Shown here: piece after piece, positions 374 through 63,924 of the stretch
Layout: the number at the start of each line of letters is the position of its first letter
How positions within the stretch are numbered: the stretch's first letter is position 1
Assembly: GCA_016179745.1 (NCBI GenBank)
Contig: JACPCP010000012.1
Coordinates: 789 to 64,788, forward strand
Length of the DNA stretch: 64,000 nt
Direction of reading: 5' to 3'
Origin: Candidatus Omnitrophota bacterium
GTDB lineage: Bacteria; Omnitrophota; Omnitrophia; Omnitrophales; JACQLI01
The notes under the pieces: model-generated
Told to the model about the DNA's origin: nothing
The model's input: only the letters and a program-made list of their open reading frames with translations
The model's database searches: none
Translations under genes and position numbers: made by a program

Positions 374-374
374 C

Positions 375-611: not shown

Positions 612-931
612 TGGGGAAGGGCTAGGGCAAACTTGAGTGCGTCTTCAACGGCTTGGAGTTTTCCATTTGAAAGAGTTGTAACCCGCTCTGTCAGTAATTT
701 TTTCGGAACCGTATTAATCACATCCAAATTAACCACACATTTCTTCGGCATCCCGTCTTCAGGGCCAAGGGGAACTTCCACGGGAATATTCCGAATCCTA
801 CTCGTCACCTCAGCTACCGTAACGGCGTCTCTGACCTGAACAGCCCGGTGCCGGGAAAGAATGACCACGGGATGTCGACCAATGGGCCTTGGTAAAGCAG
901 CCCACCAAACTTCTCCTCGTTCCATCACCAC
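608..931 (-). CDS. mazF: MazF/PemK-family mRNA interferase toxin
   Basis: ORF track, 107 aa. The sequence RGEVWWAALPRPIGRHPVVILSRH...VTVAEVTSRIRNIPVEVPL...KKCVVNLDVINTVPKKLL matches the PemK/MazF pattern (RGdiw..f.P..G.E...RPvvVls...vvvp.Ts......p.ev.l). It overlaps the upstream RHH gene by 7 nt. Confidence 0.75.
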   Translation of the reverse strand: MVMERGEVWWAALPRPIGRHPVVILSRHRAVQVRDAVTVAEVTSRIRNIPVEVPLGPEDGMPKKCVVNLDVINTVPKKLLTERVTTLSNGKLQAVEDALKFALALPQ

Positions 932-1182
932 TTCTCCCGTGTAAAGCTCACCAATCCTGCCCGGAACATTGGCTCAATGTCGGCAACACGCTCCGGTTTT
1001 CTTTGGTACCCCTTCACGTAACGCTCTTCAAGCTCCTCTTCTTCCTGTTTTTTAAGCCAAAGCTTCAATGCCTCATCGACGGCAACGCTTCGGGCAAGGC
1101 CAAGCGTATGCCTCCGGCGCTCCACACCCGCAAAAGTGCCTCTTGGCACGCTCACCGCAAATCGAGCCCTTCGTGGTTGCAT
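925..1182 (-). CDS. RHH antitoxin, MazE-like partner of the MazF-family toxin
   Basis: The ORF track lists 925..1191 with a GTG start. ATG at 1182..1180 is the likelier start because GGAGGTG lies 6 nt upstream. FAVSVPRGTFAGVERRRHTLGLARSVAVDEALKLWL is RHH-like. The acidic/aromatic C-terminal tail is typical of toxin-binding regions. Confidence 0.6.
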   Translation of the reverse strand: MQPRRARFAVSVPRGTFAGVERRRHTLGLARSVAVDEALKLWLKKQEEEELEERYVKGYQRKPERVADIEPMFRAGLVSFTREKW

Positions 1183-1218
1183 AGCTTTCACCTCCTCGTA
1201 ATACTCCAGTCTGAAAAA

Positions 1219-1253: not shown

Positions 1254-3746
1254 TTACGCCGCCGATTCAAGGGAGCGGAATTCGGCGCTGAACTGGGCCA
1301 GAAGGGCCTGGTCGGCGGGCAGACTAAGAAGCTCGTTAAATTCGGCGGGCGGCTTGAGGGGATGACTTCCAAATCCGATGAACTGAATCTGAGCTTCCGG
1401 AATTCCCTTCCTTAATAAGGCAAACTCGGCCTGTTTCCGGCTGTCATAAGCCAGGAGCCGGAAAGCTCCAAGCTTCAGTGCACGATTCAACTTCTCAACG
1501 GTTTCACGCTGAACGTCCCTCTCCTCGGACTCGCCTTCGGTCACGACAGCCACCTGGAAGGAATCGCCGTATTGCTTCTTCAATAATCCAAAAAGCGGCC
1601 CCCATTTCTCAAACGCCGCCGCCTTCACAATCATCGCCCGCTTCGCATCTGCGGTCGAGGGAATCCCAGTAGCAAAGGGGACTGTCCCCTGCTTTTCTCC
1701 GGCGGAGGGGACTGTCCCCTTTGCTGCAAAAATTGATCTCCCGGAAACGGCTCTCTCCGCTTCCACAAGCGCCTCTTGCCACGCCCCCGCCTCCGGTGCC
1801 TCCCTCGCCACTGCATCGGGAATCCCGAACCGTTTAATGAAATCACGGCTGAAAATTCCGCCCAGGATCTGCAAGGCTACCCGGACTTCACTTCGATAAT
1901 TTACTCCTTGCGGATCACTTTCGCCTTCCAGCCGATCAGCAGTGAGGTGTCCGAGACTCATAAAGATTGTAAAGCTTGTGCCTTGACCCAAAGTACTATC
2001 AACCTTAATTTGACCGTCATACCCTTCAACATTTTTCTTAACTATACCCAGGCCTTCTCCCGTGCCCTTTATTCCCAACGGCTTTTTGGAAAAGTCCAGG
2101 CGCCAAATGTTTGGAAGGTCCTCCGGTGCAATCCCGTGGCCGGTATCCGAAATACGGATAAAATCACGTTCTCCCTGTCTTCCTGTTTCAATCGTAAGTT
2201 CTTTTCTCTCGCTCTCCTTCATTGCGTGAAGAGCGTTGTTAAAGAGGTTCGTCAACACTTGGATGAATATCTCTTTGTTCATTCCTGACGAAATCGGCTT
2301 GTTGGATCGGCTAACTTTTGCTGTCAAAATCAGGTTCTGCAGATCGACCCCGGCATCTTTCACTGCTATCACCGCCATAAACAAACTTTCCTGAAGAATG
2401 TTGACAAGCCGAGGATCAACTCTGCCCCAGTTGACTTCGGCAAACGTTCTGGTTTTCTTTCTAAGAATTTTATATCCAACACGAGGTTGGTTATTTCCTT
2501 CTTTGCTCCGCACCTCGGCGCGGCGGGCCTTATTGAGGTGTTGACGTATATGTATATTTGATTTATTATTCAGCATATGTTTAAGTTTTCGCCAAAGCAA
2601 CGTGAGAATACGACGAAGGTGGTCGTCAATCTGATCACCGTGGATGCCGCGACGCTTCTGGCTGGGAACCTCTTCAGCCAGAAGGGGTTTCATTTGCTCA
2701 TCTTCATCACGGGATGTATACTCCTTTTGCTTTTTTACCTTTGGGTGCTCTGGCTTGAGCCGGAATGAGGAGAAATGAGATGACGTTACAAGGGCAATGG
2801 ATGGCGATGGGTTCTCTGGTTTTCCTCGCTGCAGTAATAGGTTGCTTTGTACTTCTTGACTGGTTGAGCCGCCGACCCAAGCATTCCCACCACTAATCCT
2901 TCTTTCCATCCGCCGCACCTCGGCGCGGGACGAATCCGGTTTGCCAGTCCCCTCCAACTTTTTGCTCACCGCCGTCTTCTTTTCCTCGATGATCCCGTTC
3001 AATATTTGCGGGACACCCTCCAGCCTATGAGCTGTAACGCCGTAACCTTGAGCGATATGATGTCGTGCAAAGCTCTGTCCTTCTTCATACCATCCTTGCC
3101 CCTTCGCCAGGCGTATTGCTTCCTCCCCCATCAATCGCATGTCTCCCATCTGCTCAATCTCTCTCGCCTTGACTTTCCCAGAAATATCAGCCCTTGCTTT
3201 CAGTGCTTGCTCGACTTTCAGCAAAATTTGTAGTTCAAGCTGAGCAAAACGATCTCTTACAATTTTCTCGGCGATCTCCGGCTTTTCGCTGATAAAAGGA
3301 AGCAACAACAAAAGAAGGACCCCTTTTAGATCTGACTCCAGATTGAGATCGTTGATCACATCCGCCATCGCAAGAAGTTCTGAAACCTTTTCGTAGCGTG
3401 TCTCGTCAACCAAATGAACATGCTCTTCCGGCGTCCCTTTCCGCAACGGGAAATTCTCAATAAGCCACGCAAGGGCCGTCCCAAAATCGGTGAATTCCAA
3501 CCTCAGCTGATCCTGGGCCAGCGCCGTCGTAAGCAGCACCGTCAACTGGGCCAACATTCCCTGCTCTAAATCGCTTCGAATCGTTCCTGAATAGTTTGAA
3601 AACGCATCTTTCAGACTAAATGTCTCCGATCCCCTTTCTTTCCCTTCACTCCGCACCTCGGCGCGGCGGCCAGGGCTGGGTCGTTTGGCTAAAGCCTGCA
3701 CTTTGCCCAATAGCTGAAGTGAGAGGATGTGCGTTTCACGAAACAA
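1254..3746 (-). CDS. 830-aa multi-module protein (four punctuation motifs, HATPase_c module, conserved ...LESAA C-terminal module)
   Basis: ORF track (TTG start). The frame is actually open upstream to 3848. It has four in-frame R[SA]EVR copies. Its terminal module is paralogous to the end of ORF 4562..20122. Confidence 0.7.
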   Translation of the reverse strand: MFRETHILSLQLLGKVQALAKRPSPGRRAEVRSEGKERGSETFSLKDAFSNYSGTIRSDLEQGMLAQLTVLLTTALAQDQLRLEFTDFGTALAWLIENFPLRKGTPEEHVHLVDETRYEKVSELLAMADVINDLNLESDLKGVLLLLLLPFISEKPEIAEKIVRDRFAQLELQILLKVEQALKARADISGKVKAREIEQMGDMRLMGEEAIRLAKGQGWYEEGQSFARHHIAQGYGVTAHRLEGVPQILNGIIEEKKTAVSKKLEGTGKPDSSRAEVRRMERRISGGNAWVGGSTSQEVQSNLLLQRGKPENPSPSIALVTSSHFSSFRLKPEHPKVKKQKEYTSRDEDEQMKPLLAEEVPSQKRRGIHGDQIDDHLRRILTLLWRKLKHMLNNKSNIHIRQHLNKARRAEVRSKEGNNQPRVGYKILRKKTRTFAEVNWGRVDPRLVNILQESLFMAVIAVKDAGVDLQNLILTAKVSRSNKPISSGMNKEIFIQVLTNLFNNALHAMKESERKELTIETGRQGERDFIRISDTGHGIAPEDLPNIWRLDFSKKPLGIKGTGEGLGIVKKNVEGYDGQIKVDSTLGQGTSFTIFMSLGHLTADRLEGESDPQGVNYRSEVRVALQILGGIFSRDFIKRFGIPDAVAREAPEAGAWQEALVEAERAVSGRSIFAAKGTVPSAGEKQGTVPFATGIPSTADAKRAMIVKAAAFEKWGPLFGLLKKQYGDSFQVAVVTEGESEERDVQRETVEKLNRALKLGAFRLLAYDSRKQAEFALLRKGIPEAQIQFIGFGSHPLKPPAEFNELLSLPADQALLAQFSAEFRSLESAA
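1677..1689. repeat. GGGGAC-T-GTCCCC palindrome, copy a
   Basis: The sequence is ggggactgtcccc, with left arm extended (gcaaaggggac). It is read as K-G-T-V-P in the minus ORF. Confidence 0.85.
1707..1719. repeat. GGGGAC-T-GTCCCC palindrome, copy b
   Basis: The sequence is ggggactgtcccc, with right arm extended (gtcccctttgc). It lies 30 nt from copy a and is read as Q-G-T-V-P. Confidence 0.85.
1881..1895 (-). repeat. punctuation motif copy, peptide RSEVR, codon-diverged
   Basis: The + strand reads ccggacttcacttcg, which is cga agt gaa gtc cgg on the minus strand. It is in frame. Context NYRSEVRVAL. Confidence 0.8.
1950..2435 (-). other. HATPase_c (GHKL histidine-kinase-type ATPase) module without recognisable HisKA/H-box
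   Basis: N-box LTNLFNNALHA, G1 ISDTGHGI (D codon checked at 2147) and G2 GTGEGLGI are present. No phospho-acceptor His box is seen upstream within the module. Confidence 0.7.
2508..2522 (-). repeat. punctuation motif copy, RAEVR, canonical DNA
   Basis: The + strand reads ccgcacctcggcgcg(g). It is in frame. Context ARRAEVRSKE. Confidence 0.9.
2541..2569 (+). promoter_or_regulatory. putative +-strand promoter (cassette 3)
   Basis: TTGACG (2541..2546), a 17-nt AT-rich spacer, then TATTAT (2564..2569). It starts 18 nt after motif copy 2508. This is an AT-rich island in otherwise GC-rich DNA. Confidence 0.4.
2577..2768 (+). CDS. small (63 aa) hydrophobic-tailed protein, possibly leaderless, antisense to the 830-aa ORF
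   Basis: ORF track. The ATG lies 7 nt after the -10 box. The C-terminal HLLIFITGCILLLLFYLWVLWL looks like a TM helix. There is no homology support. Confidence 0.3.
   Translation: MFKFSPKQRENTTKVVVNLITVDAATLLAGNLFSQKGFHLLIFITGCILLLLFYLWVLWLEPE
2913..2927 (-). repeat. punctuation motif copy, RAEVR, canonical DNA
   Basis: The + strand reads ccgcacctcggcgcg(g). It is in frame. Context SSRAEVRRME. Confidence 0.9.
3651..3665 (-). repeat. punctuation motif copy, RAEVR, canonical DNA
   Basis: The + strand reads ccgcacctcggcgcg(g). The 20-mer tccgcacctcggcgcggcgg is identical to the one at 2507. Context GRRAEVRSEG. Confidence 0.9.
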
Positions 3747-4498
3747 CGTAATCTGCTTATCATAGGACTCAGACCATCTTCTCTCATTTCCGTTGGAAAA
3801 ACCATTTGAAGCGCTAAGTCCCTTGTGATGCCTGCCAATTTTTTCAGTTTATCCTTGAGAGAAACCATATCGGGCCTAAGATCCCTTTGTAACTCTTCTC
3901 TTGTTGCCTTCCGTCCGTCCATCCCTTCCTTAAAAGATTTACCAATCAAATCGACTACTCTTGTAATCTCTCTTTCCCATGCCTCTGCCATCAGCCGCTG
4001 ACGGATAATCCGCTCGCCCTGAGTCTTCAATTCCCTTCCGACCCTGAGACCCTTCCTCTCAGAAGATGAAGTTAATGTTTCTACCTGGCCGGCGGCTTCT
4101 TTGTGGGTCCTCTGCAAGAGTTTCCTCAGGAAACTCTGAACTTTTCTTTGAGAGCCACTCCGCACCTCGGCGCGGGAAAGGGAATTTTCCGGAATATTGG
4201 GAGATGCGCTTTTATCATCAAAAAGTATTTTATTTTTTATATTGACAGGGCCCCTTCTCCCCGTTAGAATCTCCCACGTTATGGATGATAATTTCACGCC
4301 CAGGGAAGTCGCAGTACTGGTGGAGGAACTCTGCAGTGAGTTTCGGACCGTTTCAGAAGTCGTGCGGCCGTTAAGGGAGGATATGGCCGATGTCAAAGAA
4401 CGGCTTACGACTCTTGAATTCAAAGTCCAATCGCTTGACGATGCGGTTCGCCTCTCAATCCCCGGCTTGAACAAGCGCGTTTCCCGCCTCGAAGTCAA
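3689..4498 (-). CDS. 269-aa open frame in phase with ORF 4562..20122 (continuation after a single TAA); N-terminal ~110 aa are the antisense image of the + gene 4281..4511
   Basis: ORF track (TTG start). It has the same codon phase as the 5,186-aa ORF and contains motif copy 4160. The part after the motif (SGSQRKVQSFLRKLL...) has normal composition. The part before it is Ser-rich low complexity. Confidence 0.3.
   Translation of the reverse strand: MTSRRETRLFKPGIERRTASSSDWTLNSRVVSRSLTSAISSLNGRTTSETVRNSLQSSSTSTATSLGVKLSSITWEILTGRRGPVNIKNKILFDDKSASPNIPENSLSRAEVRSGSQRKVQSFLRKLLQRTHKEAAGQVETLTSSSERKGLRVGRELKTQGERIIRQRLMAEAWEREITRVVDLIGKSFKEGMDGRKATREELQRDLRPDMVSLKDKLKKLAGITRDLALQMVFPTEMREDGLSPMISRLRCFVKRTSSHFSYWAKCRL
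4160..4174 (-). repeat. punctuation motif copy, RAEVR, canonical DNA
   Basis: The + strand reads ccgcacctcggcgcg(g). It is in frame. Context LSRAEVRSGS. Confidence 0.9.
4242..4270 (+). promoter_or_regulatory. +-strand sigma70-type promoter (cassette 1) with AT-rich upstream block
   Basis: TTGACA (4242..4247), a 17-nt spacer, then TAGAAT (4265..4270). The upstream block ttttatcatcaaaaagtattttattttttata matches the block at 12610..12641 at 32 of 38 positions. Confidence 0.65.
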
Positions 4499-4511
4499 AG
4501 CCGGGATCTGA
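4281..4511 (+). CDS. small (76 aa) coiled-coil protein, paralogue of 12714..13154; near-leaderless
   Basis: The ATG lies 10 nt after the -10 box. MDDNFTPREVAVLVEELCSEFRTVSEVV...LEFKVQSLDDAV aligns with MDAYTVTEVGTLLEEIRTDVKRIAEG... of the second cassette. It is convergent with the end of ORF 4562..20122. Confidence 0.55.
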   Translation: MDDNFTPREVAVLVEELCSEFRTVSEVVRPLREDMADVKERLTTLEFKVQSLDDAVRLSIPGLNKRVSRLEVKAGI

Positions 4512-4537
4512 CTTTCGTCGAACCTCTGACCTGTCCC

Positions 4538-4567
4538 CTTACGCTTCCTTACGCCGAAGTCTTACGC
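4538..4567 (-). repeat. three copies of GCGTAAG (minus strand) placing TAA in all three phases
   Basis: The + strand has cttacgc at 4538, 4548 and 4561. On the minus strand TAA falls at 4564 (phase of ORF2), 4551 and 4541, so the three stops are in three different phases within 26 nt. Confidence 0.8.
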
Positions 4568-7500
4568 CGCCGTTTCGAGGGCACGGTAGAGTTCGGCGTA
4601 GCGCTCAAGGGCGCCGGCAAGGACCTCTGAATAATAGGAAAGGTAAGCCTGGGTTTCCCGCTGGACCCTCTGCCAATCGAGATCCTGAATGATCCGCTTG
4701 AGAAGCGCTTGGTCCCCTTCAAGCCCAAGGGCCTCGATTCGGCTGAAATTTCGCAGGCGCACCGCTACTGAAGGTCCTTCGAGCACAAGAATCTGAGACC
4801 CCTCCAGTGCCTGGCTCAATTCAATCGCCACCTTTCGGGCCACGTCCGCCTCCGCTCGATCTTCCGGCGCCACCACAAAAATCTCCGGCAAAGGGGACTG
4901 TCCCCTTTGCTGCCCGAGTGCCACGAGGAACGCCCCCGCCTTTGCAAACATCTCGGGTCCGACCACAAACGCAGTCTTCGCACCCGTCTGTCGTATCGTC
5001 ATTGCGAGGAATCCCGTCGTCACCTCACGAGCAATCGTCCTAAACGCCCCCGCCTCCGGCCCCTCCGCCGCCACCGCTTCCGGAACTACGAAGAGCTCGG
5101 GGAATTTTACAAGATCTTCGGGCCGATAAATTCTCCCAAGCAGCCTCTCTGCCACACGGCGCACTGTGTCAAAGCGAACTTCCGCCCTTTTTTCCGTTTC
5201 CTCGCTACCTCTCCTCTCTTCCTTTTCTTTCTTGGCGGATTCCTGTTGCTTTTCAAGAAAGGATAGTCCCTCGTTAACAAATTTCTTCACAGTTGTTCCA
5301 GTCCCCTTTGGTGAACGCCAAATGGGGAGCTCACGGAATTGCTCACCTGTAAGTGGAGTAAGACCTTTTTGCTTTCTTACACGATTCACGAAATTAAATA
5401 TGTCCACCGGGTTGTCAAATTGTACTTTTCCTTGTTTGTTAAAATGACGCAGGAGTCTTTCCCACGCATCCTTTTTCATTCTTCGTTCACGCTCCCTTTT
5501 TTTCGCCTCCGTCTTCATCCCCGCCCGAGTCTTCACATACTCAAGGTTATTGCTAATCCTTTGCCGCCGAAACCTAAGACGATCGCCCTGCCTTGTGGGC
5601 TGGTCTTGTTGCGCATCAATAATCTGTCGGAACAATTCTTTCTGAGTTCGTTTCTTTTCGTCATCTGTGCCCCGTACCTCGGCGCGCTGGACTGCCTCAT
5701 CTAACGGTAACCTCCCGACTTGGGTGGGTCTTCTTCCAACCATCAGAAGAATCATATTCCCCGACCTCCCCGGCAACCGCTTCGGGGAAATAACGGGGAC
5801 TAGTGACAGTTCCGTAAATCCGGCCCGTCTCCGTAACTTCCCTAGTATCGTCTCACCGATAACGTTCGGGCTGAAAATTTGAGCTGCCGCCTCGGGATAA
5901 ACGTAGTGGAACGCCAGCAGGTGATCCGTAAGACGGGAAGTATTCTTAGTCCGAATCAAATTTTGAATCTCCCCATAATATCTCGGCCATGCTTCGCTCC
6001 CCTCACCTTGAACTTGATTGGGGATCTTTTGCGCCAGAAGAAGAATAGTGCTGGGCTCGCCAATTTCCCCTGTCATCTCCTCAATCACCGGATAATGCTT
6101 CCCCACTTCTTCGTAGGCGTGCCCCATGACTCCTTGGCCACCCCAAAGGGCGTCCACAGAAACCTGAAGATCGGTGATTTTCCGATCCTTCTTATTCAGG
6201 TTGGCGAAAAAATAGGCCACCGCTTCTTTCTTCTCAACCCCTGAACCGGACAAATGAAAAATTTCGACCCAGAGAATTGCTTGCGATTCATTGGTTTGAA
6301 GTCTCCGGATCTGAAATTGTTTCGTCGGCAACTCCTTGAATTCAAATTTAAAGTCTGGGAGCTCTTTTGCGACAAACTGGAACCGTTCTCCCTTCTTTGA
6401 ACTCCATTCGCTTTTGAAGACCGAAGTCGGCCCTTCCCTATTCACTAAGATCCCAAGCGCCTCGGGAGCATAAACCGTGTATGCTTGCGCCCGCACCTCG
6501 GCGCGGGAGGAAGAAGGTCTGAAAAATTTACGGTCGAGGATGCGGCGGCTGCCGTACATCCAGGTGCTGAGAAAAGCGCGGATCAGGCCCCAGCGGCGGG
6601 CGCGATCAAAATAAATTTCACGGCCGCCGACGTGAATGGCGTAATTTTTTTTCGGGACGCCGAAGTAGTCCAAGGCCGCTTCGAGTTCTGCGATCCTTTT
6701 GACACCGTCCGTCGTTCCCTCATCCCGCCCGTCCGAGGCCCCGAAAAAGACAAATTTGTCCACGCCGTTCTTCTTAAAATACTCAATGAGTCGATACAAC
6801 TGCTGCATCGAGGCGTGCACCCCGACGATCCCTTCCTGAAAAATCCCCGTCATCGGCATAAAACCGAGCCTCTTGGCAGCTTTTAAGGCACTCTGAATCG
6901 CCGGACTCCGGGATAACTCCCCGCCTTCGAAGGCCTCATCCGCAAGCACGATGTATTGGTCCACGATACGGCCGGCCCCGAAGGTCCAGAGGTTGAATTC
7001 CGTGCTTCCTTTCTGAACCGGGCTAAAATGCCGCACGACGGCCTTTCCCCGCCTGACTTCCAGATTGACGTGGCGATCGTTTAGATACGGACTTCGTCGC
7101 AGCCTCAGAAGTCCCTCCGGACGCCGGTCGACCCGCCGCTTACCGGTATCCTGATCGATGAAAACAATTTCTCGCAGGCTGCGATCCCGTTCGATTTGCC
7201 GCGTGACAATTCTCCGGCTTCTTGAGAGGGGGTACTGGGGATTTAAGTCCAGCCGGCCGCGAAGACCGGCCGGCCGTCCCGCTGCCGGCACCGTGACGTT
7301 GGGGGCTTCTTGAAGGAGACGCTGAAGCGTCGGCAGGAGGCCCGCGTCCAAGGCCTGCTGGGTGAGGTTAAACGCCGGATCATTTCCCTTTTCACCCTTC
7401 GGCGCAAATCCGTCCGTAATGAGAAAAACGCCCGGCCGGTCTCGCCGTCCCTGAACCCCATCCGGCAGAAAACTTTCTCCCGTCATTGCCTCTGGAATCT

Positions 7501-10500
7501 TAATTCCCAAAAGATGGAGGAGCGCCGGTGCGGCGTCGGCCTGCGTACCCGGGCGATCTTTGAGGGAAATTTTTCTGAAACCGCCACCCCCTTTGACATA
7601 ATCCAGGATCATGAAAGGGACATCCGAGGCGCTGTGCCCCGGCGTGTCTGCCCCATCAAGCCCCCCGTGGTCCGAAATGGCGACCAGGGCCGCACCGGTT
7701 TCCTGGGCCGCCCCGGTCACGATTTTTACGCCGCGATCCAAGGCCCTCAATGTCTCAATGCCGGAATCCCTGCCGGTCCCCTTTTTCGAAACGAGCCGGG
7801 TGACGGTAATTTCCCGTGCCGCAAAGTCCACGGCAAAAAAAACTTTCTCCCGTGCAGGATCGAAATCGGGAAACCGATTCTGAACTCCCAAGGCCGCAAT
7901 CATTTCTCCGGCCCCGACAAAGACTTCTACGCTGTTCGATGCATTCGCCTCTTGTAAAATATCAAATTGAATGTCAAAACCCGCATCCCCCCGTCGAACT
8001 CCCTTAAGTCGGCCGGTCCGCCCGAGTTCTCGAATGCGTTTCGTAAATTCCCGGCCCATAAAAACTTGATCCTCAAATTCATCATCCTGGACCCACAAGG
8101 TCGCCGATTCATCAAGATGCTGGCTCGCCACGTGGCTATTGAGGTCGGCCATGTCCAGATTGCTAATGACATCCCCGTCAGGGCCTGCCCTTTTGATAAG
8201 GTTCGCGTCCGCACGAGCTACGAAATACATACTTCCGCCGGGATAATGCCACAGATCTTTGTTCGGAAGCTGATTGTAGACTTCAGCCTCCGCAAAGGTT
8301 CCGTCTTTCGTTTTCACTTTCACGGTTTGGCGGATTCGGGGCATGGATATGCTTCCATAATCGAGGTTTTCGTGTCGGTAAGGCTTGTCTCGGCCGCGGA
8401 AGGTCTCGATAAAACCGGTTTTCTCACTCCCAAAACCCCAAAAGACTTTCCTCCCGTGCTTCCCCAGCCATTCGACCAGGCCATGACGCACGATGATATC
8501 CGGGATAACGGCTCTCCTGCTCGCCATTAACTCCTTCACATAACGGGTCATCCCGTAAATCGGCATCCCGCGCACATCCGTCGTGTCTTCATAGGCAAAT
8601 TGATTATCCCGGACGGCCCGGACCCACAATTTCTGCCGGTCTTTTCTATGATTCCAGCCGAATAGAAAGCGTCTCTTCCGAGCCTGCGGCGCCAAAATGC
8701 CAACCGGTCCAAACTCATCAATCTGCATGATGGACCGCATCGTCTCGTCAAAATGACCTGCCTTATATTCCCGGGCCATTATTTTCTTTAACTGATCCGT
8801 CGACCACACATACACAACGCCGTCGGCCAACGAATCAATGGGGACCCTCTTTCTCTTGATCTCCTCCCAGAGGGAGGGCGCTTCTTCTTTTAAGACCAGA
8901 GGGTGGTTGCTCAGGCCCTGTTGGTTTCTTGCCTCAAGCGCACGACGGCCCACAAGGCCGAGGCTCGCGGGGCCACGGATCGGCTTTTTACGGACTTCGG
9001 CGCGCTGAGGCCAGCCGTGCTTCCCGATCAGCTCCACGAACTGGACGGGCCCCAAGTTATCGTAAGACGCCCCATCGTCGGGAGTTAAGCCCCCCCGATT
9101 GAGGCCGGCCAGAATTTTCTGGACCGCCGGAAGAACAGGCTTTTCGATTTCAAACTCAGTAAAGAATATTTTCGGGGAACTTGCGTTGACCTTGGGTTCC
9201 AGAATCAAACGGACCTTCGTATTCCCAAACTGTTTTTCCGGCGTTTCGCTCCGCACCTCGGCGCGGGAGGGCGGCCGGCCCCTCCTTAACCGCCCCATCT
9301 CAACCTCACCACGGGAGATGCGGCGGCCATCCCGCCCGGCACTTTTGGAAATGGTACCGATCCGGGTACGCGGCCCCGCAAGAGCTCTGCGGGCCTCGGA
9401 GCGGAAGAAAGAAGGATCCGTTCGATCCCCAGGAAAGTTCTGTTCACTCCAGCTATCAGCAGAAGCGTCTATCACTGAAATTGCCGACCCACGGGGCATT
9501 CCTTGGGGTTCCAGATAAACGGAGCCGTCCGGTTCGACACGGTCAATTCGAAACGAAAAATCCAAGTCACCAGGCTCGCCGCCCAGTAAAAATCGGATGG
9601 ACTCATTGGACCCTACGGTCAGGTTCAGGTGAGTAGACCAATCCTGGGTCGGATCGATTGCCTGCAAAAGGGAGGGCACATCAGCCTTTTTAAAATGATC
9701 CTCGTGGGCAATTTTAACCACCCGAGGCGCATGAATCCGCACCTGAGTCAAAGCTCTTCCACCTCGACTCCTTCGTCTTTCTCTGGGTTGTATCCAAATT
9801 TTCCTCCGAGTGCCGTTGACGATCAGACCGCTGATTTCAAGTTCTTGGCCCTGCGCAACCCTGAAGATCTGCCTAAGCGCTGCGGCCGGTAACTGGGGTA
9901 AAAGCTCTATTTGAGGGTCCGTCCTTCTCAATAAAAGTCCTGGTCTGACATTAGGGGCCGGTCCTTCTGAGAGCGAAATCAAAACCCTTCTCCTGGGATT
10001 CTCTGGATCGCTCACGACCCATTCCTTCCCGGCATCCAATGGCAAGCTCTGTTCCTTCGAAGCTTCCAAGGGCGGAGCGTCCGCCCCTTTCTCATAAACC
10101 GTCACACCCCCCTGAATCATGAAGAAGTTTTGATCAAGATTATCTCCGACACGAACCGCCGCTCTGGACCCTGACGGAAAATGGATTTGGACAGTGCCGA
10201 AGTCTCCGTTTGCTTCTGCCGGATTCCACACAAACATTTCGTTGAATTCCTCTCCGCTCCGCACTTCGGAGCGGAGGGTGTCGGCGGCGGCAAAGGCACG
10301 CCCTTCCTCGAGACGCTCGACCAGAGCTTTGAAGTCGGTAAATTTCGTCTTCTGCGCCACAAGGGTATTTAAACCGAGCGCCTTGACTCCTGACAGAGTC
10401 AACTCAAAGTAACGGAGAGAGTTTGAATCTCCTGGATGTTGTTCCACTTCACGAACCCAGCCCTCTCCTATTTGATCCGGAGAGCCGGTGTGCAGGAGGA

Positions 10501-20122: not shown

Positions 20123-20142
20123 CTCGGAAAAGGGCGGGGCGC

Positions 20143-53100: not shown

Positions 53101-56100
53101 GGAGGCATCGCCCAGTTCGCTCAGCCTGCCGGTCACCGGCGCCACACCCGGAAAATCACCCAGCCGGTGATTGAGCCCGCCCATGAAAACTTGCAGCCAC
53201 CGGTTCCCCCGCTCCACGATGCGGCGCAGGATGTCGTTTGAAATCGTGCCCGTCACATCATAAGCGACACGCCCCTCCGCTTCGCCGGTGGTGGGAAACC
53301 TCCGGGTCCTCCCGTCCGGGGCAAGGATCCTTCCACGAACCAGGGGACGAGTATAGGCCCCGGCCGCCAAAATCAGACGTTGGGGCTGGACCAGGGCCTT
53401 GATGCGGCCGGCCTGATCGCTTAATTCACTCACCCCTTCCGCAAACGCATGGGCCCGGACCACATTCAAATCATGAGGACGAATCGAATGCACACGATCG
53501 TCAGGGATCCCATACTGGCTCCGGCTTGATTCAAGCGCAGGACCGAGGTAAGCCCAATCCCGGGGAAAGAACCAGCCCCCTTCGATCCGTTTCTTGAGAA
53601 GGGAGTGATTCAGCCGAAGAAGGATTCTTCGCAGGACGGGAATCCTGCTCAAAAGGTGGAAATAAATAATTTCGAGGGCTCTCCTCCGGCGTTTTTCAGT
53701 GTCATTCACGCCGTAAGCGCTCGCTTCCCGCTGGTCCTGGATCTCGATAAACCGACCGGTTTGGCGCCACTCCTCCAGCTTGTCCCGGTGGCGAATGTCC
53801 TGCTGGGCGGCCTCCCGCCGGAGCGATTCCAAACGGGCCAGGATCCTGTTATCGGCCAGATAATTTTGTTCGGCCACTACCGTTTCACCGGCCTGAAGCC
53901 AATCGTCAATCCGGCGAATGCTCTCATCGGGATTCAGGGGGTCGAGCGACAAAAATTTTACCGGATCCTCTTCGGGCTGGGGAGCCGCAAGTTTTCGGGG
54001 CGGCGAGAGGGAAGCGATTTTTCCGTCAAACTCAACTTCAGAATACGGAACAAACTCTTTTTCGATTTTGGTGCCGGGCCGGTTTTTCTGGCCCTTCACG
54101 AATTCACGGCGGCGGTAATACTGGGCCGTCCGGCCGAGAATTCGAATGAAGCGGCGCACGTGAAGCGGTTCGCCCCCGGGACCTTCGCCGGGCCTCCGGA
54201 AATGGCGGTTGAGCCATTCATTCATCTCCCGGCTCTTCAAATCGTCCAACTGCCTGAGGCGGTCCTCTACTTCCTCGAGACTCTTCGATTCCCAGAGGAG
54301 CCTCAGGAAGGCCCGCTCTTCGTCCAACTCATTGTTTTTGGCGTAAGCTTGAATGCGGGTCAACAGCACAGTGCGGAATTGCCGCCCGAGCGCCCCCTCC
54401 TGAATGCGGCCCCAAACAAACGGCACTGTTTCCCACAAGAACCAAGCGAGAGCCAAAGGCGCCAAGATGGCTGCAGGCGCAACGAACCAGGCGGGCAAAG
54501 AAACAAGGAGAGAGATTCCAAAAAGAGCCAAAACGGTGACGGACAGGGCATAGGGCACAAGTCTCGTGAAAAAGTGACGCCAGAAGCCGAAGCCCTCAAA
54601 GTCTCCGGGGCCGGCGGGCCATCCCCCGTGAGGAGGACGGGGAGGCGCCGGCGGTTCCTGAATCTCCGGAACCGTGAGCCGTTCAATCGGGGCGTTGAGC
54701 GCTTCCCGTGATTCTCGAACCAGATTACGGCCTGCGGCCGTCCGGACCCGGTAGAGCGTCAATTCAATTTGAAGACCGCCCAGACGGTCTCGAAGAATGT
54801 CCCTGAAGTCTTCAGTCATATCCTCCCCGGTCGGCCCGGGCAGAGCGATGGATTCAAAATAAGGGGTCAGATTGACATCGGCAAAAAAATGGGTTTGGGG
54901 ATGAACTATTTCCATCACAACGGTTTCGGGGTCTCGGCCGGGCTCGGACTCCAGTGTCCCATAGACATAAAGCCAGCCGTTTCGAATTATCATTTTGGGA
55001 TCGACTTCCACGGGCAGGTATCTATCAATCCAACCCTGGACCGAATTTCGCCAGGCCTCCCTCGCCATCACCCAGGCCTGTGTCCCTGCCGGATCGAGCG
55101 GATACTTTTTCCGGATCCTGGCCGTCATTTCTTCAAGAAGGCGGGCCTTTGTTTGATTTCTTTCGAGGGCCGATAGAATATTAAGGCGCCCCTGAAGTTT
55201 TCTTTTCTCCCACCAACTGAAATACCGGTCCAACGCCACGGGCACCGTCGAGCGAAGCGACTCCTGCCAGGCCCGGTTCACCTTCTTGAGTAACTTCCCG
55301 TCCGTCCCTCCCTGCCGCACCTCGGAGCGGGGGAAATGGAGAGTGCCGCTTGCGATTTTGCGTCCTTGCGTGTCGAGGACCTTGAAAGGAATGATGTCGC
55401 CGAGCAGGCCGGCGACCCCGCTCCGGAGAGGAAAGTGGACTGAAGGCCGAACGCCGTTTGTCAACTTCAGAGGGTAGAATCTCCTCGTATCGATTTCTTT
55501 CTTGATCCCAACCGCCGGTGAAACATCGAGTGAACCAGACGCCCCCTTGAGCTGATCAAGCTGTCCTTTAAGGAGCTGCTCCACCAAATCCAACTTTCCG
55601 TTGAGGAAAATCCCTCCTTTAAAGAGCGCTGCCCCTTCATCATCGATGACGAAACGGACCCCAAGCCCGAGGTGGTCAAATCCCCGGAAGGGGGCAAGCG
55701 ACTCGAACAGGAATTCCCCCTCGTCTTGCGACAACTTGGAGGGCGCAATCACCAACTCTTCATGGGGGGATAACGCCGTCTCAATAAGGGAAGAAAATTC
55801 CTTGAACCTTACCGTAAGCCGCCCGGGATCACCGGCCGCCAGCGCAACCGAGCCGATCTTGGCAATCACGGTGAACTTCTGCTCTTCTCCGCCCCGATTC
55901 CCGGCCAACTCCGCCAAGATCCACACCTCTTCCCTTGCGTAGAATTCCAGCGCGCTCTTGAGCCCCCGAAAGAAGGACGTGGCTGTCCCCCGCACCTCGG
56001 CGCGCGAGCCGAGAGAAAGTTCTAGAGGGGCGGGCGCCCCTTCCCCCAACACCATGCGTGGAACACCACGGATGGAGGTATCGAGTCCTCTAAACTGCCC

Positions 56101-59100
56101 ACGAAGCTGCACTCCGCTTTTCGAATCACGAATCAAAATCCGGTGACGGTCGAACTCGACCTTCACGCCTGGTGGAGTTTTAACTGATTGGTAGGTTCCG
56201 TCGGTTTTGACAATCGTAAGCGGGGGGGGCCACCCTGACCAGCTCCCCTGAGGTCCGGCGACAAGAGGGCCAAACGTATTGTAAATGTCAAAAGAAGGGT
56301 CCGTTAGGCTCCGCCATTGGTTCGTCACTGCGTCGTAAAGTTGAATGGTGTCCGGCAAGAATAATTCCTCGGCGACAGGAAAGAGCTGAGGGTCCCCCAC
56401 CATATGAAGGACCAAGGGATACTTCGAATCGGGATAAATCTGAAGCGCTTGCGCCATAATCCATTCAAGAATGGTTTGTGCAACTCCGTCTTCGTGAAGT
56501 GTTTTTTGGACAGGCACTACCAGATTACTGACCCGCAACCTTTCGGGAAAGACTTCGATGGTCACACCTCCCTCGATGTTCCTGTCCGGTCCAATTAAGT
56601 GATAAAAGTGTGTGCCCTGATTGCTAGACGGATCTCGAACAAGAAGAAGGCCGGTTGGGAATACGGGGTGCGGTAAGTTCACGATCTTCTTAAAATAGCT
56701 CGGCGCAGCCTCGATCGCAGGCGTTTTCCTTGGAGCCTTATCAGGATCTTCATTCAAACGGTGATACTCGTAGTCGCTTCCAATTTTGTTGTGAGCGTCA
56801 TGCAATACGTCGACCGCTGCCTTGACGGCTCGAAACCTAAAATCCCGCTCCGCTTGCGGCACATTTCCAAGATTCTGGGCCATGTCAAACAGCTTCCTGA
56901 CCGTTCCCGAATAGCCGATGTCAGGGCCATAATCCTCGTGATAAACGACGCCGCCCTTCAAATTCCTCATTTCAAGAAAGGGCTTGGTCTTTTCCGTCCC
57001 CAGATTGATTTCAAGAGTCCCCTTGGTCCCTTCAAGGATCATATAATAGGCATTCGTGTGCACCCCCTTCCCTGCACCCAAATCGACCACGACGCTCCCC
57101 ACATTCCCCACCACACGGGCATAAGTCTCCGTCTCTCCGGGGGCGCCCCGATAACGCCAAAAGGAACTTTGATCCTTGTGAAGTTGAAACCGGCCAAAAC
57201 TAATTCCAAATTTTTCGAACAGAAATTCCCCCAACGCCACCAAGTGCACCATCATGTCCATGCCAAGCCCCCCGCCGCTCACGGCAGGATCCACAAGCCA
57301 TTCCCGTCCGTGCTCCACTTCCACATTTTCAATCATCCGTCCCCGCATGGCCCTGAGTTCCCCGAAATTTTCTTCCTTGAGCAGTTCAAACGCCTTTAGC
57401 GCTGACGGGTTGTCAAAAAAGAAGTCGATAGGAAAAATCATATTCTTTCCACGTCGATAGGTGAACTCGAAGGCATCCATATGTTCCGGGAGGCCGAGCG
57501 GCTTTTCCACAAACACCTGCATTCCATGGTTGACGGCCCAGGCCACAATATCCAGATGCGTATCGGGCCGGGTGACTACGAGCACCCCGGCAGGGTCCAG
57601 CGCCAGCACCGATTTCAAAAATGCCGTATCGGGCCCCTCAATCGGACGGTCAGGAACCTGGATATAGGCCGAATACGGGAGACTCATTCTCGCAATTTTC
57701 GCCCCGGCCGGAATTTCCCTCATCAAATCGACGGCAACAAGTTCAATATTGAAAACCTGTGCGAGCCGATTGATGTGTTCTTGGTAAAAGCGGGGAATGA
57801 CCGCGCCAAGCCCTCCATAAACGATTACTTTTTTCTTCGGCAGGGTTCCTTCGCCGGGAAGGTCGAGCTTTGCGATATCGGTAATCGGTGCGATGTGGAC
57901 TGCCGTGGGCGTAACGGGGTTGATTCGAGCGAGGGCACGCACCACGGGCCCTCGAATGGCCGGGTCTTGGACCCAGGAGGTTAAGGCAGGAATTGCGTCT
58001 GAACCGATCGCCGCCAAAACATCTTCAATTCTTTCTTCTAGTAACTTATCTTCCTCACGGAAAGCTTCAATCAAGTGCGGCACCGCAATCACACCCAGGT
58101 GCTTCAGCCCATCGGATGCAACCTCCCGGACCTTTTCATCTGGAGATTTTAGGAAATCGATTAAGACCGGAACGGCCGACACGCCTTGTCGGGTGAGCAC
58201 CCCCTGGACTTCATCACTATTTTTTGATGAGGAGATTAAATTACGAATTCTCTCGTAGGTCGGACTGCCGCGAGTCAGATCGGGAAAGGTCGGGTTCGAT
58301 GAGTGGAACCGTTTTCCTTTTTGAGAACGAAACCAAGCGTTGAGAGAACTTCTGAGCCAAGGTAATTCTTTGTTTCGCCGGTCATTAATTACAAAATCCC
58401 AGCCCTGGATTACTCCTTCTTCATCAAAAGTAATCTTAACGAAACCTTTGTACAAAACTTGATCTGTCAGCGCTTCCCTCGCCACCCCATAGGGCGTTGC
58501 CCTGACATAAAGATCATAAATATTTCCTGGATGTCCAGACGGGCCATACTTCAGAGTAATCGAGTGGTGAGTTGTCTTGCCAAGTTTGGGATCAACCCTG
58601 GCATCAAGCAGGGAGATACTTCTCAGCCTCCCATCCTCCCAATACTCCGGCTGGAGAAAAACCGGAGGCGTGGGCGTTTCGGCGGATCGGATCTCTGAAC
58701 GAGGTTTTCCTCCGCCGGGAGATTTCGCCTCGGCCACATCAATAATGACTTGCCCCCGGAAATGTTCGTCTGGTTTAAGAGTCACCGGGGCCGCTTCCGT
58801 TACACCCCTTTCAAACATCTGGAAGGCATTCGTGGAACTCGTCTGGGATTCAACACTGATATTAGGCAGGCCTGCCTCATCGGGAGGGACCCAAAAGACT
58901 ATGTGTTTGAATCCTCCGCTTTGAGAAATGGTAATCTGTTTTCCTGTTATCGGATCCTGAAGCGTGGATCGAGCAAACCCATCGGAGTCAAACCTGAGCC
59001 CCGTGTAAACATCATCATAGATGTCCCCTCCCAGCACCTTGCTTTCAGCGAGGGCGTGCCTGCCGGTCGCCTCAAGCAACTTCCCGGTAGGAATCATATC

Positions 59101-62100
59101 CTCACGAGCCTCATAAACCTTTGTAACGGGAAGGGTCGCCTTGACATGATTCCGCCAATCCAGAGGCATCCGGAAGTAGGGATGAAAACCGAAACTCATC
59201 GAAAAGTCACTTGTGCCGAGATTGACGATGTCGGTTTCAACCGTCAGCCGATTCCCTTTCAACCGGTAGATCACGGAAATCTTAGCCCGGCCAAAGTAGG
59301 TTTCAATCGGTGTTCCGGTACCGTCATAACTGCTGCGGATAAAGACCCCGTCGTTGGTCATCCCGGTTTCTTCCACGATCCAAGGAACGTGCCAAACCAT
59401 TCCGTGAATCATATGCGTATCAATCCGGTAAACCTGGTGTCCGCTTTCTAACCTCTTCCTGAAATCGGCCACACTTAATTCTTCAAGGAGATTCACGATC
59501 GTTCCGTCGGGCCTTTTAATTTTTCCGCCCTCAATCCGATTAACAAACGGCCACATGATGGGAAAACCTCCAACGGCGTTTAAATCTTCTGGGAAGTAAA
59601 AGATTTCTTCCGGGGTGTCGCCCGTGAACAGCACCTTCATTGAAACAATCGTGTTCCCCCGATCAGGCATTACGACGATCGATGAGTTCGATTGCTTATC
59701 AACTAAGCGATACAACCGGTGGTCATATCCTTTCCGGGTAAACTCTTCGATCCTGAAACTATCCGTTTCTTTAGAATTGAGAATCGATTCCTCTTCCGGC
59801 GAAGGGGCTTCCCCCGGACCCATCACCTGATGAGCAAGGGCAGAGAACTCTTTCGGATCGACACTGGCGCGGCCGACGAGGACGCCGTCAATGCCGGGTC
59901 TTGCAAGAAACAGCCCAACGTTTTCGGCGTTGACTCCCCCGCCGAAAATGATCCGCACCTTCCCCGCTGCTTCAAGTCCGTAAAGGTTGAGGAGGGCATA
60001 GCGAATCAGGCGATGCATCTTCTGGACTTCCTCCGGAGCCGGTTTGAAATGGATCGGCTCGTATTCAATAACAACCCGAGAGAGTTCTTCGGGCTTGACG
60101 CCGTTTAACCGGGCCGCCACCTGTGCCCTCATCCGATCCAGCCGATCTCTTCCGGCATGGTCTACGGCGTTCTCCGAAACCGCGAGCACCACGCCAAACC
60201 CGTTTGCCAGTGCCGCCTTGATTTTCCTGTTAATCACCTCAGGCGGCTCGCTCACCCCGGTCTCAAGCTCATCGCCGCGCACCCGCTCCGAATGTCCCGC
60301 GAGGACATAACGGACCCCGAACTCCCTGAGACTCTCCACCGGCGTCTGGCCTGTCCCCTTCCCCGGCTCGGCAGATGAAATGTCCTGGGCAAGAAGGTCA
60401 ATTGCTTTGTTCCCTTCCAAGACCTTGCTCACCGCTGAAAGGTGGGCATCAGAAGGTCCTATTAGAATCTCTCCTTTTCCGAATCCACGCGGCAGATGCG
60501 CCGAAATCGACCGGGCAAGAACTAATGCGTCTCGTTCCCTAGGTAACAAGGTCTTCCATAGACCCACGAGAACCGGCGCCCGCACTGCCTCCTCTGCCTG
60601 CTTGAGCCCCTCGATTGCTTCCAGATCCTCAAACGTTTTGACCCTCCTGCCCCTCGTTTCCGAGCGGAGGGTCAGGATCATCCGGAGCTGCTGGGCGCCT
60701 GCCAACACATCTTGTTCACTTCCTTCTGAACGCTGGATCGTGATAACGTCAATTTGCAGTAACCGGCTTCCACGGATCAAATCGGTGATGTCGACAACCC
60801 CCTCCGTTTCATGGACATCCTTCTGGAGAGAGACCGTTCGAGCCTCTTCTTCCTTTGATGACCGAGCAAACTGAACGCCGACTCGCTTTCCCCAGAAGTG
60901 CCGGGGAAGGACCAACTCGGCCTTCTCGATCCTCTCCGCCTCAATCCGGGCCGGTTGCACCAGTATAAATCTGTTGACGCCCTCACGGATCTTCTGCTGG
61001 TCTGCCGGCAGCAGGACCGGAAGGTAGGCAAAGAACTGTAACCGCTTGGATTCGGAGGCGCCCTCTCCCCGCACCTCGGCACGAGCTTCGATCGAGGGCA
61101 CCTCGGAGCGGGGGAGCTGCTCGACCCATTCGAAGCGCTTTTGAACCATCTCTTCCCTCGTGAAACGTTCTACGCCGGTCACCGACCCCCAAGTGTATTT
61201 CCTCTCCTGTCGACTCCAGCCGGCCGGCACTGCCACGAGGATTGGGCCACGGCCTTTCCTCCCCTCTTCAAGATTGGTCACGAGCAAGTAGCGTGGCAGG
61301 GTCAGGGCGCCCTGCTTTTCCCGGAAGCGCAACACGATTCCGAGTTCAGCTTTTTCCGGCGCTTGCTCCGTCACCTGCTGCCATCTGAGTCCGTCCTTAT
61401 TAAATTCCTCCTCACTCCCCCGCACCTCGGAACGGGGGAGAGAGTCAATGGCCGCCTGGATCGCGCGCCTCACGGTCGGGTGATTTTCTTCCCTTAGGGC
61501 CTCAACCAAAATCTGACGGACGATTGATACCGCCTCTTCGTTCCGTCTGGCCATCGAAGAAAGGTCTTCTGCCGCACTGACACGGTCCGACACCGCCGGG
61601 TCGTCTAGCAGCCCAGATAACCTTTTTATGACTGCTTCATCTTCTTCGCTAAGCCGCACCTCGGAGCGGGGAGTCTGCTCTCGCAGATAGTTAGCGATTT
61701 CATTCAGGATTGAATCCTGAGAGCCGCCATCCCAGCCGCGCCGGAGGGTGTCGATACCCATCGGATCGATATGAAGCGTTGTCTGCCATTGGCGGGACAT
61801 CCAAATTTGTGGGGGGTTCGGGCCCTTGGGCACTCCGAAGTAAACACGAAAGATGGGCTCTCTCGGACGCCCCTCGTCCGGCCGCCACTGCCGGGTCCCA
61901 TCGACAACGAAATATTCGGGCTCTTCGCCTGGTGCGGGCCGGACATGCCCCATAACCAGTTTTCTTCTAACGGTCTCCTCCTCCACCCGCCTGAGACTTT
62001 GAACCCGCTCCTTGAGGAACTGCAGAACGGTGGCGGCATCGGGGTTGATCGGGGGGGCATGGTTTTCTTCGAGCTGTGCCGGATCCGTGATCAGCCGCGC

Positions 62101-63924: not shown

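Follow-up and report, generated by a model that had tools for sequence, protein, structure and literature searches.

Three tandem giant-class genes probably underlie an almost continuous 62.7-kb frame in an Omnitrophota genome

Three genes on one strand and the breaks between their frames

The stretch of DNA analysed here, hereafter the window, comprises 64,000 nucleotides (nt) from a Candidatus Omnitrophota bacterium (GenBank assembly GCA_016179745.1, contig JACPCP010000012.1, positions 789 to 64,788), and its minus strand carries an array of long open reading frames (ORFs) that follow one another almost without interruption over 62.7 kb. The first to be read, O1 (20143..63924), is a multi-enzyme giant of 14,593 amino acids (aa) encoded in 43.8 kb, with about 13 hydrophobic segments. 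It is followed by O2 (4562..20122), a giant of 5,186 aa (NCBI MBI2167125.1), and by two shorter ORFs with TTG starts, O3 (3689..4498, 269 aa) and O4 (1254..3746, 830 aa; MBI2167122.1, locus HYU34_02625). Both NCBI records are proteins of Candidatus Omnitrophica/Omnitrophota metagenome-assembled genomes (MAGs). The ORF listing bears out the coordinates and the sequence details that a first-pass annotation had given for these four minus-strand ORFs, namely that O2 and O3 share a phase and are parted solely by the TAA at 4562..4564, that O3 and O4 overlap by 160 nt in which the O4 frame is open from 3848 and a run of five thymines (T5) lies at 3797..3801, and that O1 and O2 are parted by a TAG, 20 nt and a phase change. 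Three explanations had been offered: separate cistrons, decay of a once-longer gene, and recoding or sequencing indels.

Our results indicate with high confidence that the array consists of three separate genes in tandem on the same strand, of the Omnitrophota giant multi-enzyme class, and not of one recoded gene. These are O1, O2 and a third gene, O34 (1254..4117, minus strand), which encodes 966 aa once 37 missing nt are put back, with a HATPase_c domain and a C-terminal module. Two of the breaks are genuine cistron boundaries and one is an assembly-specific 37-nt indel. Among the explanations offered earlier, separate cistrons hold for the boundaries of O1 with O2 and of O2 with O34, and an indel for O3 and O4; recoding and general decay are not supported. 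In a six-frame scoring of codon usage, the giant frame is the best-coding one over all 62.7 kb except at 4200..4559 and 12720..13199. The class to which the locus belongs, that of the Omnitrophota giant multi-enzyme genes, is already known, and the explanation of its apparent continuity is mostly ordinary, such that the locus should not be filed as a case of recoding. By our interpretation, O2-type genes have a plan in common: an N-terminal signal or transmembrane (TM) anchor domain is followed by a variable string of enzyme-like modules, between which polar linkers carry the short peptide R-[SA]-E-[VL]-R, and then by a conserved C-terminal module of about 200 aa that ends in ...RALE[ST]AA directly before the stop.

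Judged from its homologues, the TAA at 4562 is an ancestral, conserved gene end that lies past a terminal module. This C-terminal module of O2 (4565..5209, minus strand, about 215 aa) begins just past an RAEVR and ends in ...YRALETAA at the stop. HMMER, run with the C-terminal 644 aa of O2 on 1.8 billion representative proteins, gave five informative relatives. Four of them (P0077, P0079, P0080 and P0081) match the module, about 200 aa in length, up to their own C-terminus or to at most five residues before it, and the fifth (P0078) carries the full module at its own C-terminal end. Their endings are HRALETAA (P0077), FRALESAA (P0078), QRALETAA (P0079), QRAFETAA (P0080) and ...QVEASA (P0081). 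A profile of the module, run against six-frame translations of the loci that we fetched (duplicates excluded), matched at ORF ends only. A scan of GTDB genome contigs with an alignment of the module found no relative, which places the source MAG outside the species representatives. O34 ends in a paralogue of the module (1257..1901, minus strand, ending in ...FRSLESAA and a stop), and one copy of the R[SA]EVR-type motif stands directly before each of the two C-terminal modules.

Two of the fetched loci allow the surroundings of this stop to be compared. In one of them (L016), an O2-like gene of 2,458 aa with the same N-terminal domain and eight [PSK]RAE[VL]R motifs ends in ...HRALETAA and a stop, with the gene for tryptophanyl-tRNA synthetase (TrpRS) 65 nt beyond. 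In the other (L029), ...FHRALEASA is followed by TAA, then by a convergent small plus-strand gene and then by TrpRS; the phase shared with the O2-type frame carries many stops past the TAA, including in-phase stops within 100 nt. TrpRS (window 1..380, minus strand; L016 9617..10591; L029 1246..2271) is thus a conserved neighbour, found downstream of the O2-type gene in all three genomes, and its position makes L016 and L029 syntenic with the window. Stops and starts are conserved in both syntenic loci, and in all homologues found the C-terminal module stands last.

The annotation was also right that stops in the other phases back up this TAA: three TAA triplets, one per phase, lie within 26 nt (4539..4564, minus strand) in a GCGTAAG-like triple repeat, the first of them (4562..4564) being the O2 stop. 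Its doubt about readthrough proved justified, since the terminal module, the stops in L016 and L029 and the three-phase set of TAA triplets leave readthrough unsupported. Placed directly past an ORF of 5,186 codons, the triple TAA resembles a fail-safe terminator for ribosomes in any frame.

The TAA at 4562..4564 is the only stop between O2 and O3, which share a phase (the translation reads ...ALETAA, stop, DFGVRKRKGTGQRF; first codon base modulo 3 equal to 1), and the chance of phase identity alone is 1 in 3. The long open stretch past the TAA is not random: the frame is open because it lies antisense to a real, conserved gene for a small coiled-coil protein, and it is the frame in which the third codon positions of both strands face each other (wobble-on-wobble). 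The in-phase relation across the TAA may be the vestige of an antisense block that was read through, and not pure chance. Stop-codon readthrough was considered as a source of the continuity and rejected: the best-coding frame past the TAA is on the plus strand, and the downstream frame is closed in L029.

The break between O3 and O4 has another origin. Their overlap extends from the point where the O4 frame opens (upstream stop TAA, 3849..3851) to the O3 stop (TAG, 3689..3691). The best database match to O4 is a protein of 966 aa (P0001), in which the C-terminal two-thirds of O3 are joined to O4 through FPEEEFLVMTQ, and which is encoded in four Logan assemblies of separate runs (SRR12113419, SRR12113422, SRR12113428 and SRR12113431). 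The four contigs (L001-L004) match the window without a difference over up to 13.4 kb, save for 37 extra nt (CCCTTTTCCTGAGGAAGAGTTCTTGGTCATGACCCAG on the minus strand, encoding ...P FPEEEFLVMTQ S...), which are missing from the window at the junction 3767..3768. As 37 equals 3 x 12 + 1, O3 and O4 stand in a -1 relation, and the two-frame overlap exists because the MAG is without the 37 nt that its sister assemblies have. With these restored, a single gene, O34, runs from a TTG at 4117 (Shine-Dalgarno (SD) sequence GAGGAA; the start chosen by gene callers) to 1254. The MAG record splits this one 966-aa gene on account of the 37-nt gap, and NCBI annotates only its 830-aa piece (MBI2167122.1). 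The 269-aa ORF mostly shadows a real gene on the opposite strand, the N-terminal third of the ORF being the antisense strand of the 76-aa gene described below. Pfam assigns HATPase_c to O34, and the homologues of O4 other than itself match the HATPase_c domain alone.

The first-pass annotation had noted that a -1 shift anywhere in 3689..3848 would fuse O3 and O4, and that T5 lies in this overlap. The run (3797..3801, minus strand) lies about 30 nt upstream of the deletion junction at 3767/3768 and has no part in the frame change. Programmed -1 frameshifting there was rejected, the 0-frame codons (ATG GTT TTT CCA) holding no X XXY YYZ heptamer and the deletion explaining the shift.

The break between O1 and O2 is an ordinary cistron boundary, at which O2 begins with its own signal-anchor. 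O1 stops at a TAG (20143..20145), and O2 starts in another phase at an ATG (20120..20122), past a spacer of 20 nt (20123..20142). No earlier start codon occurs in the O2 frame, which is open from 20257; the ATG opens a basic stretch, followed by a hydrophobic stretch and by an AxA-type sequence. The N-terminal segment and the conserved anchor domain of O2 together occupy 18422..20122 (minus strand), with a signal/TM segment at aa 12-30 and the sequence ...HEAWA/ETDG; the conserved domain (aa 34-567, 18422..20023) holds QTAHG...GGFH motifs. Four relatives (P0053, P0054, P0055 and P0077) likewise carry such a signal/TM segment at the very start of the protein, P0055 being a stand-alone protein of 601 aa from an Omnitrophota MAG. 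In L016, the giant ORF upstream of the O2-like gene has RAEVR-type motifs and ends in ...ALAQSA, and its stop overlaps the O2-like ATG (TAATG) in another frame. The C-terminal-module profile did not detect the end of O1, so the same terminal module could not be shown for O1, and a BLASTP comparison of the giant ORF upstream in L016 with the final 1,500 aa of O1 found no match.

Small plus-strand genes and the antisense block

Over 4200..4559 the coding strand by codon usage is the plus strand. Here lies a small gene of 76 aa (4281..4511, plus strand), convergent with O2 and divergent from O34, with a promoter-like site at 4242..4270 (plus strand, TTGACA-N17-TAGAAT, 11 of 12 matches). It matches its family hidden Markov model (HMM) with E 8.6e-15, was picked up by gene callers in each of the four Logan assemblies, and has short-type homologues in L029, L030 and L031. 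It is a short-type paralogue of a second gene (12714..13154, plus strand) that is nested within O2 and encodes a coiled-coil protein of 146 aa (MKREKPVKPAKKMDAYTVTEVGTLLEEI...). The nested gene has an SD sequence (AGGAG) 7 nt upstream of its ATG, a promoter-like site 43 nt upstream of it (12642..12670, plus strand, TTGACA-N17-TACACT) and codon usage that favours the plus strand. Its protein has 19 homologues of 110-170 aa at 42-63% identity (family HMM E 8e-51); the promoter TTGACA-N17-TAGA[AC]T stands 43 nt from the ATG in 4 of 7 copies, and promoter and SD together are clear in 5 of 7. The two units, each with a small gene, a promoter and an R[SA]EVR motif, are marked by an AT-rich element of 38 nt (4210..4247, minus strand) duplicated at 12610..12647; a search matched these two copies (0 expected) and no others.

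The giant frame of O2 crosses the nested gene and its promoter for about 200 codons. This antisense block (12566..13180, minus strand, aa 2315-2519) is bracketed by in-frame RSEVR copies at 13180 and 12580, and in the giant frame it encodes a Ser/Leu-rich sequence that includes a single hydrophobic segment (aa 2457-2475). The antisense frame is free of stops in all seven independent copies tested, for which synonymous resampling gives a joint P of about 5e-8. A second comparison of loci likewise showed no stop in any copy, and in most of its loci the open frame takes up the whole contig and R[SA]EVR motifs flank the block on both sides. The open giant frame spans the whole contig in seven loci (L010, L018, L019 and L021-L024), and in five others (L026-L028, L030 and L031) it crosses the locus or reaches one end. 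In five of seven loci from GTDB species representatives the small gene lies within an open frame, these frames measuring 1,753 to 4,976 aa or more; five of the seven loci are named Omnitrophota or Omnitrophica and the other two are labelled 'uncultured bacterium'. In L025 and L029 the small gene is not nested and the antisense frame carries stops, which shows that the small gene is conserved for its own sake.

From these open frames we infer that the giant ORFs are translated through the nested antisense gene. That the antisense regions are dual-coding, with the giant frame kept free of stops by selection, is a part of the polyprotein reading discussed below that we advance only tentatively. 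A giant ORF that crosses a promoter-bearing small gene raises questions of dual coding, of head-on transcription and of how the expression of giant genes is regulated. Opposite the Lys-rich N-terminus of the small protein there is a conserved TM-like segment, SIFLAGFTGFSLFIAILLV (O2 at about 12,700..12,754, minus strand; N-terminus of P0078; L010), and the antisense-coded stretch might thus supply a membrane-spanning linker.

The small coiled-coil gene is not alone in lying antisense in such frames. A gene for a retropepsin-like aspartic protease (PF13975/PF13650, E about 1e-13) is nested antisense in open giant frames of two relatives, at L019 881..1267 and at L027 2077..2451 and 7582..7761 (plus strand), next to a plus-strand ORF of about 70 aa that has a promoter-like TTGACA site of its own. 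The end of the retropepsin-like gene in L027 is followed, 21 nt on, by an in-frame motif. This gene may be either a candidate for a processing protease or a mobile cassette.

A recurrent peptide between modules

O1, O2 and O34 together contain 37 copies of the peptide R-[SA]-E-[VALI]-R, against 0.5 expected and a maximum of 3 in 500 local shuffles, and its permuted, K-for-R and D-for-E variants occur 0-1 times. All copies read on the minus strand and are given here by their first base, from which the 15 nt read downward. O1 has 19 (63555, 63477, 62346, 62109, 61668, 61434, 61083, 58701, 56004, 55329, 51765, 47721, 43860, 40779, 33984, 26580, 22011, 21765 and 20952), O2 has 14 (18424, 17194, 16006, 14986, 13180, 12580, 11356, 10273, 9403, 9265, 9004, 6505, 5686 and 5188) and O34 has four (3665, 2927, 2522 and 1895). 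With one more upstream of the predicted O34 start (4174), the 38 copies span 1881..63555, and their consensus is CGC KCC GAG GTG CGG. No copy in O1, O2 or O34 falls within a Pfam envelope, and the flanks of the motif are polar (hydrophobic fraction 0.235 vs 0.323, -5.9 standard deviations).

The motif is also present in relatives (P0054, P0077, P0078, L013 with five RSELR, L016 and L018-L024). Giant ORFs of four loci from three Omnitrophota genomes have 13-15 copies per 3.5-5 thousand aa; the genomes are RIFCSPLOWO2_12_FULL_50_11 (two loci), NC_groundwater_108 and Ca. Taenariivivens baikalensis. Selection on the peptide can be argued, because synonymous and AGR/AGY codon variants keep it. Our best guess, drawn from this pattern of sequence, is that the motif marks a module boundary used for proteolytic processing or docking. 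A literature search with the motif peptides and the RALETAA ending gave nothing relevant among the top-ranked matches.

Whether Omnitrophota giants act whole or cut is an openly stated question, and an enriched linker motif that delimits enzyme-sized modules offers a concrete way to segment them for structure prediction and gives proteomics defined N- and C-termini to seek. If our guess is true, the boundary peptide would be the processing or docking site so far missing for these proteins.

Alternative readings and comparison with known systems

Several observations weigh against the interpretation given above. The intact assemblies apparently belong to one sampling project, and are independent assemblies of one population rather than independent species. 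The 37-nt difference could be a real allele, in which case O34 is a pseudogene in that strain. There is uncertainty over the start of O34: the predicted TTG is preceded by an in-frame SRAEVRS (4174), and one gene call (P0083, 1,085 aa) begins 119 codons further upstream, at TTG 4474, in the antisense region. Orthologues of O1 and O34 close enough for base-by-base comparison were not found. As for the motif, one relative (L010; ENA ERZ27253378 k141_210551, 9,585 bp) is without R[SA]EVR and has seven copies of AAARLA (GCCGCCGCGCGGYTGGC) in its giant frame, and the same small gene lies antisense between two of them; the motif at the junctions therefore appears lineage-specific. In the window, codon choice in the motif is skewed to CGC-KCC-GAG-GTG-CGG (statistic 122, vs a simulated mean of 83 and a maximum of 101). 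Because of this skew and of the L010 repeat, a nucleic-acid or recombination role of the motif has to be considered.

One recoded gene, in which readthrough of the TAA at 4562 and a -1 shift at T5 would yield an O2-O3-O4 polyprotein of about 6,300 aa, would accommodate the common phase of O2 and O3 with one stop between them and the T5 within the 160-nt overlap, and the giant ORFs of relatives do cross the same kind of antisense block. Yet the frame change is fully explained by the 37-nt deletion, the sequence being intact in four other assemblies, the 0 frame (GTT TTT CCA) offers no slippery heptamer, and the TAA closes a module that is terminal in every homologue found. Past that TAA, moreover, L029 has many in-phase stops and L016 has TrpRS next, and in the window the three-phase TAA set is followed by coding on the opposite strand, all of which makes a recoded gene extremely improbable. 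Decay is a possibility that we take more seriously while doubting it: the 37-nt deletion would be a real allele, O34 a fresh pseudogene and the locus the eroding remnant of a once-longer gene. The deletion in the MAG contig does lie between short similar sequences (CTGAG/CCCT ... CCCAG/TCCT), as slippage would give, and the part of the locus with O34, the small gene and the PemK/RHH pair is variable relative to L016 and L029. Against this, the four Logan assemblies are intact and show zero divergence over 13.4 kb besides the indel, the 62.7 kb hold no other frame disruption, the giant frames keep their coding signal, and the other two breaks are conserved boundaries.

O2 might also be two genes (aa 1-2314 and aa 2520-5186) split by the plus-strand small gene, the stop-free stretch between them being untranslated or incidental. 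In 12720..13199 the coding signal is indeed on the plus strand and the giant frame is without it; the block has its own promoter, its paralogue between O2 and O34 does sit at a gene boundary, and the antisense frame is broken in L025 and L029. We nevertheless think this quite unlikely, as there is no stop across 5,186 codons, in-frame R[SA]EVR copies stand on both sides, the seven independent copies of the antisense frame are stop-free with the joint P already given, and the open frame continues across whole contigs in L010, L018, L019 and L021-L024 and across the locus or to one of its ends in L026-L028, L030 and L031. With no stop to release them, ribosomes that travel along a full-length mRNA have to translate the block as well. 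The motif, for its part, might primarily be a DNA or RNA element, such as a hotspot of module-shuffling recombination or a site of RNA processing or pausing with its SD-like GAGGUG, with the peptide a by-product. Codon choice in the 37 copies is concentrated far past background usage; the motif 16-mer CCGCTCCGAGGTGCGG is a quasi-palindrome in which 12 of 16 positions match the reverse complement; direct copies of it bracket the antisense blocks (e.g. 13180..13166 and 12580..12566, each holding the SD-like GAGGTG); and in another lineage the same block stands between copies of a different GC-rich repeat, GCCGCCGCGCGGYTGGC, encoding AAARLA. The peptide is kept, on the other hand, with other codons (e.g. 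CGA AGC GAA GTC CGT and AGA TCT GAA GTC CGG), the five RSELR copies of L013 use very different synonymous codons, K never stands for R nor D for E, and the motif is conserved across proteins merely 30-45% identical, so that we regard a primary nucleic-acid role as unlikely. A narrower version, in which GAGGTG would act as an internal SD sequence with a start downstream, was rejected, no consistent in-frame start following it.

Within the preferred reading of three tandem genes, a further step can be proposed with due hesitation, that the giant ORFs are true modular polyproteins, their modules delimited by a lineage-specific peptide, and that they host conserved nested antisense genes, one for the small coiled-coil protein with a sigma-70-type promoter and, in relatives, one for the retropepsin-like protease. 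Viral polyproteins (picornavirus, potyvirus, retrovirus) have conserved short cleavage sites, and a likeness may be inferred from the unrelated modules in one ORF, the short peptide in exposed linkers and its lineage variants RSEVR, RSELR and AAARLA. The differences are that the host is bacterial, that no protease domain was identified in O1, O2 or O34, the only protease seen being the retropepsin-like gene nested antisense in L019 and L027, and that the sites are known here from a sequence pattern. With programmed -1 frameshifting (dnaX, IS elements) and readthrough, the array has in common two -1-related ORFs, a homopolymer in their overlap and a single in-frame stop, but differs in the 37-nt deletion, the lack of a slippery heptamer, the conserved true terminus and the closed frame in L029. 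Nested antisense genes in bacteria and 'shadow ORFs' in GC-rich genomes are known kinds of overlap too. The blocks described here resemble them in having two long ORFs on opposite strands with third codon positions facing, and differ in that the short plus-strand ORF is a conserved, promoter-bearing gene and the giant ORF, thousands of codons in length, is kept free of stops across it in many lineages.

The closest known systems are the other Omnitrophota giants, which in the text available to us are described as giant genes longer than 20 kb (Seymour et al. 2023, PMC10066038), as 'Archaeovorins' (West-Roberts et al. 2023, bioRxiv 10.1101/2023.11.21.568195) and, with a cut-off of 10,000 aa, as class 1 'multi-enzyme metabolic clusters' (Nielsen & Lui 2026, bioRxiv 10.64898/2026.06.07.730766). 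O1 is above this cut-off; O2 and O34 are below it yet have the same architecture. The array shares with these giants the Omnitrophota origin, ORFs of 5-15 thousand aa, HEAT repeats, TM helices or a signal peptide and largely unique sequences, as well as glycolysis-type domains (TIM, GPI, FBA, PGM/PMM), HATPase_c and receiver domains; about 15 distinct Pfam families occur in the array (also PGK, GAPDH and iPGM), none of them dominating. It differs in that no glycosyltransferase, C39 peptidase, SecA or dockerin domain was found in O1, O2 or O34, where the C39/subtilisin protease and SecA-like domains frequent in Archaeovorins gave no Pfam match at E <= 0.01. West-Roberts et al. 2023 (bioRxiv 10.1101/2023.11.21.568195), in the part of the text available, gave the unknown cleavage points of giants as the reason for not segmenting them, and type II/IV secretion or pilus genes or glycoside hydrolases are said to flank 13 of 14 giants (Nielsen & Lui 2026, 10.64898/2026.06.07.730766). 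In the searchable text of the giant-gene papers there is no mention of an inter-module motif, a conserved terminal module, frameshifts or antisense or nested genes, nor in the available main text of an inter-module motif or linker. The architecture of anchor, modules and terminal module, the boundary pentapeptide and the nested antisense gene are thus not mentioned in those papers, as far as their text could be searched.

The domain content of the two giants fits a multi-enzyme description. Pfam matches in O1 comprise HEAT, TIM, aldose 1-epimerase, GFO/IDH/MocA, PGK, the GAPDH C-terminal domain, cupin-type GPI, class II FBP aldolase, metallophosphoesterase and PGM/PMM, and a crude hydropathy scan finds 13 hydrophobic segments in it, as well as a signal-like segment at the N-terminus of O2. 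O1 also contains an internal duplication (aa 7338-7689 and aa 8353-8716; window about 41,900..40,860 and 38,870..37,780), whose neighbouring, motif-delimited segments are without a Pfam name and share 35% identity over 378 aa (E 3e-46). Two FBA-II-like regions lie about 1,400 aa apart in O1, with the hydrophobic strands IILEAIVAAAKKFDVPIIV and IILRAIVRTAKFLGVPIIV. In O2, Pfam finds PALP (three stretches), a response-regulator receiver and iPGM_N. Past the nested block, O2 shows a similarity to the N-terminus of O34 (EREIxxVxDLIG, E 0.17) that is merely suggestive.

The N-terminal domain of O2 may belong to the EreA/ChaN/TIKI superfamily, to which its sequence and predicted fold show weak matches. 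The Pfam family ChaN/Tiki (Cofac_haem_bdg) matches it with E 0.02, below the family cut-off. An AlphaFold2 model of the domain has a predicted local distance difference test (pLDDT) score of 69, and its top Foldseek matches in the PDB are EreC, BcR135 and ChaN, at weak levels (E 0.12, TM-score 0.2-0.3). Sequence profile searches of the PDB, this domain included, gave nothing significant, and NCBIfam had no match for the N-terminal domain, the C-terminal module or the small protein. If the likeness is real, a hydrolase- or protease-like domain would stand at the membrane-anchored end of O2-type proteins.

Within the window the array is flanked by 76 nt upstream and by about 1.2 kb downstream, the latter with a PemK/RHH pair and TrpRS. 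Scans of the window for Rfam families and tRNAs found nothing. The PemK/MazF-like toxin gene lies at 608..931 (minus strand, Pfam E 4e-17), between an upstream ORF of 88 aa without a family match (925..1191, minus strand) and a downstream RHH/RelB-like ORF (375..611, minus strand). L016 is without O34, the small gene and the PemK/RHH pair, and L029 keeps the small gene alone of these; since O34 and the PemK/RHH pair are missing from both syntenic loci, this stretch is variable. Finally, Ala-Ala C-termini recur in the array and its relatives, in O1 (..FGVAA), O2 (..ETAA), O34 (..ESAA), P0055 (..NNAA) and P0077-P0080, and such ends presumably resemble ssrA-type degron ends or the signals of tail-specific proteases.

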